A DNA stretch of 64,000 nucleotides from Candidatus Pacearchaeota archaeon (GTDB taxonomy: Archaea; Nanobdellota; Nanobdellia; Pacearchaeales; GW2011-AR1). The stretch's first letter is position 1. Each line of letters begins with the position of its first letter. The notes below the pieces were generated by a model. It did no database searches and was not told where the DNA came from. It was given only the letters and a program-made list of their open reading frames with translations. The stretch is taken from positions 18,475 to 82,474 of the forward strand of contig JAFCEE010000001.1 in NCBI GenBank assembly GCA_017609285.1, given 5' to 3'. Made by a program: the position numbers and the translations under genes. Positions 10,491-13,851 of this stretch are shown one piece after another.

Positions 10491-11276
10491 TCATATTTCA
10501 AAACACTCACCCCTAAGCCTACAAGATTTACATTTATTAAAGTTAGATGGAAAAGGAGCATTTTTCATGTTGCGGATTTTGTCAGCTATTTCTAAAACTT
10601 TATTTTTTAATTCTTTGGTTATAAAAATTTCTTCTTCCTTTCTTTTTGTTTCTATTATTCCCCATTCTATTTTTTTTCCAAACTCTTCTTCTAAAAGTAA
10701 AGAATAAGCTGCTAATTGTATTTTATCAGACTCGTATATCTCACTTCGAGTTTTAATTTCATATGGCAAGATTTTATCAGAAACCATAATTCTGTCTACC
10801 CTTCCTTTTAGCCTTAACCTCTCTGAAATAATCTGAAATTCTGTTAAATATTTTGGTTTTAAATTTCTCCATAATTCCTTGCCTTTAAAACCCAAGTTTA
10901 AAGCGTTCTTAATTGAATCTGCTCTTATTAAAAGGTCTTTTTTTAGAAAACCAAGAGTTTGAGTTTCTAGAGTTAAAAGTTCTATTTTAAAAATCTTAAA
11001 GAGGTTCTCATAATTTCTTGAAATCTCTCTTATTATCTCATTAAGATAATTACGATAAGAGATTAGTATTTGTTCTTTAGTTATATTTTCTTTTATATTA
11101 GAAACTATCATGCTCTCGTTTTTGTTAAAAATATCAAAAACCTTATGTTTAAGAAAGCCAAGAATCATTGCTTTGGTAGGTGGCTCTTTAATTTTTTTAA
11201 CTCTCTTCAAGAAAATTTTTCTTGGGCAGTATAGATATTCTGCTATTTCAGTTACGTTAATTATTTCTTTGCTCAT
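10491..11276 (-). CDS. Cas4-family PD-(D/E)xK exonuclease (DUF83), stand-alone
   Basis: 261 aa. N-terminal EYLYCPRKIFL, QLAAYSLLL (QxxxY motif), D...EIK catalytic residues, C-terminal CKSCRLRGEC (CxxCx5C Fe-S ligands). No cas1/cas2 or CRISPR repeats nearby. Confidence 0.7.
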   Translation of the reverse strand: MSKEIINVTEIAEYLYCPRKIFLKRVKKIKEPPTKAMILGFLKHKVFDIFNKNESMIVSNIKENITKEQILISYRNYLNEIIREISRNYENLFKIFKIELLTLETQTLGFLKKDLLIRADSIKNALNLGFKGKELWRNLKPKYLTEFQIISERLRLKGRVDRIMVSDKILPYEIKTRSEIYESDKIQLAAYSLLLEEEFGKKIEWGIIETKRKEEEIFITKELKNKVLEIADKIRNMKNAPFPSNFNKCKSCRLRGECFEI

Positions 11277-11806
11277 TTTAATTCTTGTCTGGCTTTTTCT
11301 AGTTTATCTTTGACTAAAGATTTAACTTTTTCTGACAGTTTTGTATACGACCTTTCTAGTTTTGCTAGAACCTCTTTCTTATTTTTATATACATTTCTAA
11401 ATAAACCATCAATATCATCAAAATGGGCTATAGCATCTGCGTCTGCTAAAATTTGAGCTTCTTTTGTCTTTCTTTTTCTATTTTGACTTCCTCTGTGTGA
11501 GAGAATGCATTGTTTAATTTGTTCTATTTTTTCTTCAGGGTAATTTAACTTTGTTAGCAATTCTTCTGCAATTTTTGAGCTAGAAATATGATGATTTTTA
11601 TAATCTCCCCTTATGCTTCCTATATCATGTAACCATGCTGAAATTTCTGCTATTTCCTTATCTGCATTTTCTTTTTCAGCTAATTGAATGGCATATTTTA
11701 CAACAGGAATAAAATGTTTTTCGTAAGACTCTTTATAATGAGCTTCTGGTTTTTCAAATTCTTCTTTTACAAATTCCTTAACTTTTTCTATTATTTCTTT
11801 GCTCAT
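11273..11806 (-). CDS. HD-domain phosphohydrolase
   Basis: 177 aa. H...HD motif (SAWLHDIGS), downstream conserved His/Asp (ILSHRG, ADADAIAHFDD). 4-nt overlaps with both neighbouring genes. Confidence 0.7.
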   Translation of the reverse strand: MSKEIIEKVKEFVKEEFEKPEAHYKESYEKHFIPVVKYAIQLAEKENADKEIAEISAWLHDIGSIRGDYKNHHISSSKIAEELLTKLNYPEEKIEQIKQCILSHRGSQNRKRKTKEAQILADADAIAHFDDIDGLFRNVYKNKKEVLAKLERSYTKLSEKVKSLVKDKLEKARQELK

Positions 11807-13038
11807 TTCTTAAATCTTGACTTCCTTACTGTGTAATTTACAGGATTTTTAATTTTCTCGCAAAGAGGGTCTGGCTCGCATACTCCAATGTCTTTATAAT
11901 AGGTTTTGTCGCAATTTGGAGGCAAAACTTTTTTTTGCTTTTTATGCCATGTTATCTGGCTTTGAATATAACCCTGTCTTAAAGGTTTTTCATTTTTTTT
12001 GTTCCATTCTTTTATTCTGTTTTCAATTTCATCAAAATTTAAACCTAAAGACTTGAAATAGTTAAGCAAAATAAATAAAGCTCTTTTTTTACCATCTTTT
12101 AAACCTTTCAAGATATTTGATATGCAAGGAGGCATAATTATTTTACTTTTATCTATTTTGATTTCTTCATATACTCTTTTCTTATCTGGTTCTTTTTTCT
12201 TTTCTCTTGATTCATACCAATCTAAGGCTGAGATGAGTAACTCGCGAGCTTCTTCTTTCTCTGCCTCAGGATAAAAGTTTTTTATTTTAACTCTTAAAGG
12301 GTCAGCTAATTTAGGCTGGAAATTTTCTATTTCTTCCTCATCAAGAACTATACTGGCTAGACAGGTTTTTTCATGTAAAGAATAGGGTGCACGAAAAAGA
12401 TGTCTGGATGAGACAAGTATAATGTCAGGTGCAACCTCCTTAGGAGCTTCAAAGTCTTTAATATAATTTTTCCTTTCGCCAGATAAAGCAGTTATTTCCT
12501 CAATTAGTTTTGATTTTATCATTTCTGTCAAATAGATAGAGATAATTCTAGGCCATTCAGGAAACATATCTTTTGTTTTTTCTTCCGTTAGAGAAGAAGG
12601 AAAGGCTTTCCATGGTACTATAATATGGAATCCTTTTCCTCCACTGAACTTCGCTCCGAAATTTTTAATGCCATGAAATTTTAAAGCCTCAATAATTAAA
12701 GAGCAAGCTATCTTGCTATAATCAAGATATTTTGAATCAATGTCTATCAATAAATCCCAGCCATCTCTCAGGTTGTTTAAATCTTCTTCTTTTAAATCTG
12801 TAGAAAGTTCAAGGGGATTAGACCATATTTCTTCTGAACAGTGGAAAGAAGTAGCTCCTTTTTTTACTTGTTGTGCGATGTCAGAAGGGTATTGTAAAGT
12901 ATCTGGCCTTTTACCAAAGTTTTCTATATAACGCGGTATGGTCTCTCTCTTTTGACAAAATTTAAAAATAGCTTCTTGCACATCTTTTCTAGAGTAATAT
13001 GTCCTTGCTATTTTTTTTACCCTCTTTTCCTTCTCCAT
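11803..13038 (-). CDS. priS: DNA primase, catalytic small subunit PriS fused to a PriL-like Fe-S C-terminal domain
   Basis: 411 aa. AEP motifs: LLIDIDSKY (DxD), FSGGKGFHIIV (SGxxGxH), RHLFRAPYSLH (R..PxSxH). C-terminal about 100 aa carries four Cys (C..C..C..C) like the PriL CTD. The compact PriS-PriL fusion is known from Nanoarchaeum-type DPANN archaea. Confidence 0.75.
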   Translation of the reverse strand: MEKEKRVKKIARTYYSRKDVQEAIFKFCQKRETIPRYIENFGKRPDTLQYPSDIAQQVKKGATSFHCSEEIWSNPLELSTDLKEEDLNNLRDGWDLLIDIDSKYLDYSKIACSLIIEALKFHGIKNFGAKFSGGKGFHIIVPWKAFPSSLTEEKTKDMFPEWPRIISIYLTEMIKSKLIEEITALSGERKNYIKDFEAPKEVAPDIILVSSRHLFRAPYSLHEKTCLASIVLDEEEIENFQPKLADPLRVKIKNFYPEAEKEEARELLISALDWYESREKKKEPDKKRVYEEIKIDKSKIIMPPCISNILKGLKDGKKRALFILLNYFKSLGLNFDEIENRIKEWNKKNEKPLRQGYIQSQITWHKKQKKVLPPNCDKTYYKDIGVCEPDPLCEKIKNPVNYTVRKSRFKK

Positions 13039-13122
13039 ATTCTTTTTTGCATAAGAGATTTTAAATAATTAGTGTTACTGTATCACAATAATGCTTTTAA
13101 ATTTATACTTTATAGTATTAAG

Positions 13123-13851
13123 ATGTTGCTGAAATTAGATAGTCCTAAATTGTTGAGTGATGTTGTTGGCATAATATCTGAGTTAGTTACTGAGGTCAGG
13201 ATTAAAGTTAACCCTAATGGCCTGAGTGTAATAGCTATAGATCCTGCTAATGTTGCGTTAGTTTCTTTTTTGCTCCCTAAAACTGCGTTCTCTAATTTTG
13301 AAGTAAACAAAGAAGAGATTTTAGGAATAAATTTAGATTCTTTAAAAAATGTTTTGAGGAGGAGTAGTATTGGTAGCAATTTAGTTTTACAGACACAGGA
13401 CACTAACTTAAGGATAGAGATTCATGATAAGATAAAAAGAGTCTTTAACTTAGCTTTAATTAATATAGAACAAGAAGAAAAGCAAATGCCTTCTCTTGAA
13501 TTTACTTGTCAAATAGAGATGCCTTCTCTTGATTTATCTGAAGCAATAGAGGACTGTAGTGTGGTGGCTGACTCGTGCAGTTTTTCTGTACAAGAAGGAA
13601 AATTTATTATTGAAGCTAAGGGTTTACATTCTACAAAATCAGAATTTTCAGGAGATGAGGCCAAGATTTCTGGTGAAAAAGGTAAAGGGAAATATTCTTT
13701 GGAATATTTACAAAAGTTCATTAAAGCTTGTAAATTAACAGATAAAGCTATAATCAATTTTGCAGAGGATTATCCTTTAAAGCTAGAGTTTCCAGGGGGA
13801 AATTTTAATTTAGCTTTTGTTTTGGCTCCTAGAGTAGAAACTGAAGATTAA
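13123..13851 (+). CDS. pcn: DNA polymerase sliding clamp PCNA
   Basis: 243 aa from the internal ATG (the ORF track begins at an upstream GTG at 13072). Three-domain PCNA pattern (LKLDSPKLLSDVVGIISELVTEVRIKVNPNGLSV...). Divergent from the primase operon. Confidence 0.8.
   Translation: MLLKLDSPKLLSDVVGIISELVTEVRIKVNPNGLSVIAIDPANVALVSFLLPKTAFSNFEVNKEEILGINLDSLKNVLRRSSIGSNLVLQTQDTNLRIEIHDKIKRVFNLALINIEQEEKQMPSLEFTCQIEMPSLDLSEAIEDCSVVADSCSFSVQEGKFIIEAKGLHSTKSEFSGDEAKISGEKGKGKYSLEYLQKFIKACKLTDKAIINFAEDYPLKLEFPGGNFNLAFVLAPRVETED

Follow-up and report, generated by a model that had tools for sequence, protein, structure and literature searches.

A CRISPR-independent Cas4-family nuclease gene coupled to a fused PriS-PriL primase gene in a Pacearchaeota-like archaeon, and its possible accessory role in replication

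Archaeal gene clusters that join PCNA with PriS/PriL, with NudF close by, were described by Berthon et al. (2008; PMC2643942, as far as its available text goes). NEQ395 of N. equitans, a monomeric PriS-PriL primase, has been characterised, and the accessible part of that study states that many DPANN archaea have the fusion, which acts there as the replicative primase (PMC10250227). Cas4 genes that stand alone, known as solo-Cas4, were catalogued in DPANN archaea by Hudaiberdiev et al. (2017; PMC5704561), whose accessible text suggests a function in defence or repair. The available sections of a 2024 study of DPANN archaea still call their role unknown and again suggest defence (PMC11420986). 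In the main text of the 2017 catalogue (supplementary tables aside), the words 'PCNA' and 'primase' have 0 occurrences, and our searches of an open-access library turned up no study connecting solo-Cas4 with primase, PCNA, RFC or Okazaki processing. Here we analyse a stretch of 64,000 nucleotides from a Candidatus Pacearchaeota archaeon (hereafter the window), in which a gene for a solo Cas4-family nuclease lies in one row with a fused primase gene and the gene of an HD-domain phosphohydrolase.

The three genes occupy the minus strand and lead away from PCNA. The primase gene (11803-13038) encodes 411 amino acids and is followed by the HD gene (11273-11806, 177 amino acids) and the Cas4-like gene (10491-11276, 261 amino acids). 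At both junctions the stop and start codons overlap by four nucleotides in an ATGA sequence. Coordinates and junctions agree with a preliminary description made from the letters alone, and family scores together with invariant residues bear out the three gene identities and every motif named there. Its observation is confirmed, and its interpretation is partly supported. We lean slightly towards the view that the Cas4-like protein may serve as an accessory replication-associated 5'-end nuclease, encoded in a chromosomal replication operon of this Pacearchaeota-like DPANN archaeon. New here is the CRISPR-free Cas4-family clade with its replication-linked context; the primase and the DPANN solo-Cas4 proteins were already known.

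The Cas4-like protein scores 96.7 bits against TIGR00372 (cut-off 65) and 61.6 bits against Cas_Cas4 (PF01930, cut-off 22.7), and it further matches the Pfam families PDDEXK_1 and Dna2. The RecB motifs D...ExK and QxxxY (D161, E173, K175, Q187 and Y191) are found in the chain, as is the four-cysteine pattern C...CxxCx5C (C17, C249, C252 and C258), and all of these residues are invariant in 11/11 orthologs. An AlphaFold2 model built from an alignment of 86 sequences has a mean predicted local distance difference test (pLDDT) score of 96.6 and a predicted template modelling (pTM) score of 0.90. Searched with Foldseek, the model finds mouse Dna2 as its best match (5eaw, E 4e-7, TMq 0.58); the next hits are type I-C and I-G Cas4, AdnB, Pcal_0546, ACE1, SSO0001, MGME1 and Exo5. 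A helical insert at residues 35-127 aligns better with Dna2 and AddB than with Cas4.

Together with the invariant cysteines, the model supports the RecB-like fold and the iron-sulphur (Fe-S) site proposed in the preliminary description. As modelled, the protein is a Cas4-family Fe-S RecB-like nuclease with a Cas4-like catalytic core, and because of the long insert its overall shape comes nearer to the nuclease domains of Dna2 and AddB. The model shows both a Cas4 fold and a Dna2-type Fe-S RecB-like nuclease domain. We reject membership of the Dna2 family itself, since the fused superfamily 1B (SF1B) helicase domain is missing from a chain of only 261 amino acids. The protein contains no helicase domain, and a search at E <= 1e-10 gave no homologs of 458-2000 amino acids, which is weak evidence.

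The gene is a solo-Cas4, independent of CRISPR, because Cas1 has no match in the genome (588 kb in 8 contigs, 81% complete) and the window holds no CRISPR-like spaced repeats. The same two absences had been reported for the window in the preliminary description and hold; the cas2 that it also listed was not searched. Cleavage of 5' flaps by a CRISPR Cas4 is described in a preprint, so such chemistry is plausible for the window protein.

Next to the primase, the gene has a conserved place. We compared 61 genomes, namely the window genome and 60 others of its family or order, and retrieved with the ortholog alignment the loci of the best 80 of 288 public relatives of the Cas4-like protein. After removal of one duplicate (L004 = L096), 29 distinct genomes carry the Cas4 clade of the window type. 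In 26/29 the Cas4-like gene follows the primase in the same orientation: in 19 the two genes are direct neighbours, mostly with a stop/start overlap, and in seven at least one open reading frame (ORF) intervenes. Two of the remaining three are cut by contig ends, and one genome (G017) has the gene elsewhere. The order of primase, then Cas4-like gene, is thus conserved. The gene order of the preliminary description stands for this pair and fails for the trio, as none of the 60 relatives has the HD gene next to its primase.

To describe the family beyond these relatives, we grouped the neighbouring genes of the 80 public loci (4-kb flanks) into clusters and annotated the representatives with Pfam. 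Four loci from Methanoculleus and Methanocalculus, with a short Cas4 in a cas operon presumed from neighbour sizes alone, form the outgroup. In 20 of the 76 solo loci, those of the Pacearchaeota type, the primase lies upstream. Another 20 show TyrRS and then, divergently, the Cas4-like gene, a gene for a PRC-barrel protein and the RFC small subunit (RFC-S; Rep_fac_C 76.6 bits). This order covers 20/26 loci of the Woesearchaeota type, and three of the other six are cut by contig ends. In a third arrangement (9/76) PCNA is divergent from the Cas4-like gene, directly so in eight. They make up 9/14 loci of a clade in which most record titles read Methanophagales, ANME-1 or Methanosarcinales, and PriL (PF04104, 121 bits) belongs to the PCNA operon in 7/9. 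We also notice a PRC-barrel gene just upstream of Orc1/Cdc6 in the window genome (G000:C7:34954-35202); its homolog is the one between the Cas4-like gene and RFC-S (L058-L083).

A quick IQ-TREE phylogeny of 97 rows splits all solo forms from the CRISPR-linked forms with a Shimodaira-Hasegawa-like approximate likelihood ratio (SH-aLRT) of 100. Each gene context falls in its own clade (support 82, 89 and 85), and within the primase-linked clade family f1 stands apart from f6, f8 and f9 (GTDB family codes). With its sequences grouped by clade and family code, the solo-Cas4 clade fits vertical descent with many losses. In the PCNA-adjacent clade (L107-L119, L103 and L105), a C-terminal tail C-E-T-[RK]-K-T-L-L-S-K-L-F-G-K is kept in 14/14. 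Judged against what we take to be the consensus of the PCNA-interacting protein (PIP) box, the KTLLSKLF part of this tail resembles a PIP-like terminal box. By a rough estimate, not a computed one, a random gene in a genome of 0.6-1.5 Mb would in about 5% of cases have PCNA, RFC or primase no more than a few kb away, so that three clade-level coincidences appear unlikely by chance.

We propose the following working of the locus. The monomeric PriS-PriL primase encoded by the first gene would supply replicative priming. The Cas4-like gene, translationally coupled to it in this lineage, would contribute an accessory 5'-end nuclease for single-stranded DNA. In the manner of the eukaryotic Dna2 nuclease, this nuclease would trim flaps at 5' ends, or ends that carry a primer, or else resect forks that have stalled or broken, and it would work alongside Fen1 and RNase HII, replacing neither. 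The HD enzyme would clean or tune the nucleotide pool for replication, its gene having presumably moved not long ago from an Orc1/Cdc6-DP1-HD-DP2 operon context into the primase/Cas4 overlap. We infer the biochemical activities, the contact with the replisome and the substrate in vivo from gene identities, residues, fold, gene orders and an insertion scar, all of which are observed.

A broader reading is conceivable, and we hold it with more doubt than confidence. The CRISPR-less Cas4 clade, to all appearance vertically inherited, might as a whole be an unrecognised accessory component of the archaeal replisome, a stand-alone counterpart of the Dna2 nuclease with recruitment handles specific to each lineage. 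The handles would be the coupling to primase in the Pacearchaeota type, the RFC operon in the Woesearchaeota type and the PIP-like tail beside PCNA-PriL in the Methanophagales type.

Several observations weigh against a replication role. The first is the distribution of the nuclease. Among the 61 genomes, 12 match the Cas4-like protein strongly (E < 1e-40, the threshold used for both nucleases compared here) and 49 do not. One of the twelve copies, in G035 (= L096), is broken into two frames. A second solo paralog of the PDDEXK_1/Cas4-like kind, of about 283 amino acids, has a strong match in 25/61 genomes, and 26/61 have neither. The replication-linked role advanced in the preliminary description is supported by the family's place beside RFC-S and PCNA-PriL elsewhere, and is weakened by a nuclease that most of these genomes dispense with.

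The second concerns gene order. A secreted, unrelated protein of 591 amino acids is found beside the primase as consistently as the Cas4-like protein, and adjacency within the order is weak evidence for that reason. The Cas4-like gene is set apart from it by the stop/start overlap with the primase and by its recurrence with other replication partners elsewhere. Of the 76 solo loci, 27 have no replication gene in their flanks, including whole clades beside quinolinate phosphoribosyltransferase, and the cross-lineage signal comes down to about three events only, seen in the best 80 of 288 relatives. Genes for a DNA methylase and a GIY-YIG protein lie between PCNA and PriL in several loci of the Methanophagales type, and restriction-modification (R-M) neighbours are recorded for some DPANN solo-Cas4 genes in the accessible text of the 2017 catalogue (PMC5704561). 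The window protein itself shows no PIP box under the loose pattern Q..[ILMV]..[FYW][FYWLIM]; it ends in ...CFEI and has no tail.

The third is the presence of the usual factors. Fen1 is found in the window genome and in 55/61 genomes altogether, and RNase HII is also encoded in the window genome, so there is no gap in Okazaki maturation to fill. We reject the Cas4-like protein as a replacement for either enzyme. The suggestion in the preliminary description that it possibly substitutes for missing canonical factors is not supported as regards flap or primer removal, NurA being the only factor not found.

The absence of NurA gives the next-best explanation some ground, although we consider it unlikely. 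Here the Cas4-like protein would be an end-resection nuclease of recombination repair that replaces NurA and provides RadA with 3' tails, and its link to replication would be one of co-regulation only. NurA has no above-cut-off match in any of the 61 genomes, that of the window included, and RadA (307 bits) and a HerA-like ATPase are encoded in the window genome. The modelled fold is similar to that of the end-resecting enzymes AddB, AdnB and Dna2. The distribution of the two solo paralogs is suggestive of partial complementarity, as expected of this explanation: both occur together in 2/61 genomes, with a Fisher p of 0.10 overall and of 0.02 within family f1, calculated on genomes that are related. 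On the other hand, the 26/61 genomes with neither paralog speak against such a repair function, and it accounts less directly for the pairing with primase, RFC-S and PCNA and for the PIP-like tail. It also overlaps with an accessory replication nuclease, as Dna2 does both jobs.

A 372-amino-acid ORF after the HerA-like gene was considered as a divergent NurA and rejected, because it looks NUDIX-like. The second paralog has a conserved context of its own (L120-L125; G002, G036, G008, G006, G021 and G014), with ribosomal protein S6e, aIF2-gamma, an unknown gene, the nuclease and a convergent GyrA. The window genome lacks this paralog and encodes a PDDEXK_1 protein of 225 amino acids instead (G000:C7:11183-11857); two ORFs further downstream, and in the opposite orientation, lies a helicase-like gene.

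A role in defence, or against mobile elements, seems to us somewhat less likely still. The place beside replication genes would then be a historical accident. The patchy distribution, the frequent losses and the decaying copy fit such a role, as do the equally syntenic secreted protein, the methylase and GIY-YIG genes inside the PCNA-PriL cluster and the suggestions of defence and the R-M neighbours found for DPANN solo-Cas4 in what is accessible of the two earlier studies (PMC5704561, PMC11420986). An accident explains poorly why three clades have three different replication partners, or why the start of the Cas4-like gene overlaps the stop of the primase gene. The grouping of the tree by clade and family code fits vertical descent and not exchange. 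A scan of viral contigs gave only 12 partial, distant Cas4 matches (best E 4e-9) and no close relative, and no defence genes adjoin the Cas4-like gene in the window.

The gene between primase and nuclease has a different history. The HD protein matches Pfam HD (PF01966) with 53.2 bits, and its H..HD..H..H..D residues (H31, H60, D61, H72, H73, H104 and D124) are invariant in 8/8 orthologs. Against the Protein Data Bank, a profile of the orthologs finds YedJ (3gw7, 5e-13), two HD hydrolases from structural genomics and 5dqv (1.3e-6). Its score against the NCBIfam equivalog for YedJ (NF007515) is 39.1 bits, far under the cut-off of 286. A review, in its accessible part, describes 5dqv as YpgQ of B. 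subtilis, a Mn-dependent NTP/dNTP hydrolase with the ligands H29, H58, D59 and D124 (PMC8177086). The window protein is probably a YpgQ-like (d)NTP pyrophosphohydrolase.

Orthologs of the HD gene sit between the two subunit genes of PolD, in the order Orc1/Cdc6-DP1-HD-DP2, at 5/7 loci fetched. At one of these five (L128:4371-5423, G018) we notice a NUDIX-HD fusion of 351 amino acids in the DP1/DP2 slot. In the window genome DP1 and DP2 are contiguous, with no HD gene between them. The HD gene is instead flanked by a direct repeat of 19 nucleotides on the minus strand, one copy at the primase/HD junction (11790-11808) and one at the HD/Cas4-like junction (11260-11278), which equals AA plus the first 17 nucleotides of the HD gene. 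Only two exact copies of the 17-nucleotide core exist in all 588 kb of the genome, one where the HD gene starts and one where the Cas4-like gene starts. At the closest relative locus (L040) the primase directly overlaps the Cas4-like gene and no HD gene is present. From the flanking repeat, the contiguous DP1-DP2 and the relative without HD, the HD gene appears to be a recent, lineage-specific insertion at the primase/Cas4 junction, with both ATGA overlaps preserved.

The same slot holds another gene elsewhere: an NT5C-type 5'(3')-deoxyribonucleotidase (L041:3433-3990, 72 bits), which overlaps the primase stop codon. Given the orthologs in the PolD operon, the NUDIX fusion and this NT5C gene, the HD protein may be an enzyme for cleaning or tuning the nucleotide pool that travels with replication operons. 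Nucleotide-pool hydrolases would then be embedded in replication operons and be able to move between them.

The primase is ordinary for its lineage and of an already known type. On the one chain, DNA_primase_S (PF01896) scores 30.1 bits at residues 99-231 (cut-off 26.8) and DNA_primase_lrg (PF04104) 33.1 bits at residues 257-397 (cut-off 22.4). The motif residues of archaeo-eukaryotic primases (AEP), namely D99, D101, S132, G133, G136, H138, D205 and H222, are invariant in the 19/19 orthologs aligned. All four cysteines of the PriL C-terminal domain (CTD), the putative ligands of a cluster, are present (C305, C376, C387 and C393). Searches of the window genome with the PriS and PriL families give one match each, both to this gene. 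The genome search for a second primase or for separate PriS and PriL genes, proposed in the preliminary description, found none in the 81%-complete genome and upholds the gene as the sole replicative AEP primase. A Toprim protein of 383 amino acids, presumably the usual archaeal DnaG homolog, is also encoded.

The fused primase is detected in 60/61 genomes. Among 30 primase loci we see a recurrent backbone of a 259-amino-acid uncharacterised protein, a small winged helix-turn-helix (wHTH) protein, PCNA and, divergently, the primase and the secreted 591-amino-acid protein; the divergent PCNA-primase pair is kept in most relatives' loci. As the sole AEP primase of its genome and one present in nearly all of these genomes, it is, on sequence grounds, the organism's cellular replicative primase of the NEQ395 type, chromosomal and not mobile. 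That the trio could be a captured and domesticated plasmid or virus replication module with a non-cellular primase, the preliminary description's second suggestion, is very improbable: archaeal mobile elements often encode monomeric AEP primases and Cas4-like nucleases (PMC10250227 and PMC5704561 in their accessible parts, and general knowledge) and the primase-Cas4 slot accepts foreign inserts, but the genome has one PriS and one PriL match, the primase and the PCNA/primase/591-amino-acid backbone are conserved in the relatives, G+C is uniform across the primase region, no integrase, terminal repeats or, short of a dedicated scan, tRNA were noted adjoining the locus, and the viral-contig scan gave no primase relatives beside its distant, partial Cas4 matches.

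The primases of the relatives vary in structure. That of the window is compact and lacks a Cys-rich insert common among its relatives, many of whose primases (ORFs of 490-560 amino acids) carry about 100 extra residues in the PriS domain, between window residues ~180 and 203. The insert has four CxxC pairs and is presumably zinc-binding. In the PriL-CTD, 8/19 aligned primases, the window's among them, have all four Fe-S cysteines, 9/19 have every one replaced (by S/T/V, Y/F and mostly aliphatic residues) and 2/19 have some replaced; the observation of loss is assigned to L041, L044, L047, L049, L052, L053, L055, L057 and L091. Judging by these residues, the Fe-S cluster of the primase is naturally lost in about half of the clade. 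One primase (L043, 1037-3601), an ORF of 854 amino acids, contains an intein in its PriS domain (Intein_splicing 62.8 bits and LAGLIDADG_3). Similarly enlarged frames of 868 and 909 amino acids occur at G006:C2 and G024:C12, the annotation having been made for L043 alone. A free-standing LAGLIDADG-type ORF of 270 amino acids adjoins the RFC-S/RFC-L operon of the window genome (L136:5558-6370, G000:C2).

Upstream of the primase gene lies an AT-rich spacer of 84 nucleotides (13039-13122, no strand assigned), which we presume to be a bidirectional promoter region. Beyond it, the PCNA sliding clamp gene (13123-13851) is read from the plus strand and matches Pfam PCNA_N and PCNA_C as well as the sliding-clamp models of NCBIfam with 173 bits. 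Within it, at 13486-13551, we notice a tandem duplication of 33 nucleotides, 76% identical, that encodes MPSLEFTCQIE / MPSLDLSEAIE.

For solo-Cas4, catalogued in 2017, the recurrence of primase, RFC and PCNA as neighbours offers a testable hypothesis, that of a replication-associated, Dna2-like 5'-end nuclease. It bears on lagging-strand maturation or rescue in minimal archaeal replisomes, and on the origin of CRISPR Cas4 and the ancestry of the Dna2 nuclease domain. If the broader reading of the clade were true, CRISPR Cas4, and perhaps the Dna2 nuclease domain too, could have been recruited from a nuclease of replication or repair of this kind. HD, Nudix and NT5C hydrolases that hop between PolD and primase operons would then form a second accessory layer of these reduced replisomes.

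The window protein is about 60-80 residues longer than the solo-Cas4 of DPANN archaea, SSO0001, Pcal_0546 and type I-C Cas4 and has the helical insert, and the solo-Cas4 proteins of its type form clades of their own, apart from CRISPR-linked Cas4. With the eukaryotic Dna2 nuclease domain (5eaw, 5eax and 5ean) it shares about 18% identity. No helicase is attached here. The two are not orthologs, and the comparison concerns only how the protein may work.

The HD protein is comparable to YpgQ of B. subtilis (5dqv) and YedJ of E. coli (3gw7), all of them small stand-alone HD proteins, with a similarity at the level of profiles only. The metal ligands H29, H58, D59 and D124 of YpgQ correspond to H31, H60, D61 and D124 here. 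To our knowledge, embedding in a replication operon is no known feature of YpgQ or YedJ.

Like NEQ395, the window primase joins a PriS catalytic domain and a PriL CTD with four cysteines on one chain of about 400 amino acids, and like NEQ395 it is the sole AEP primase of a reduced DPANN genome. The likeness is one of architecture, and the Cys-rich insert and the intein of the relatives are absent from the window primase. In the accessible text on NEQ395 (PMC10250227), the words 'nuclease' and 'operon' do not occur.

The clusters of Berthon et al. (PMC2643942) are also among the closest described systems. There, as here, a primase gene adjoins PCNA and a nucleotide hydrolase lies in the neighbourhood; the terms 'RecB', 'COG1468' and 'exonuclease' do not occur in the available main text. 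In the window, however, the primase is fused, the hydrolase is of the HD type (NT5C in another genome) instead of Nudix, and a Cas4-like nuclease belongs to the cluster.

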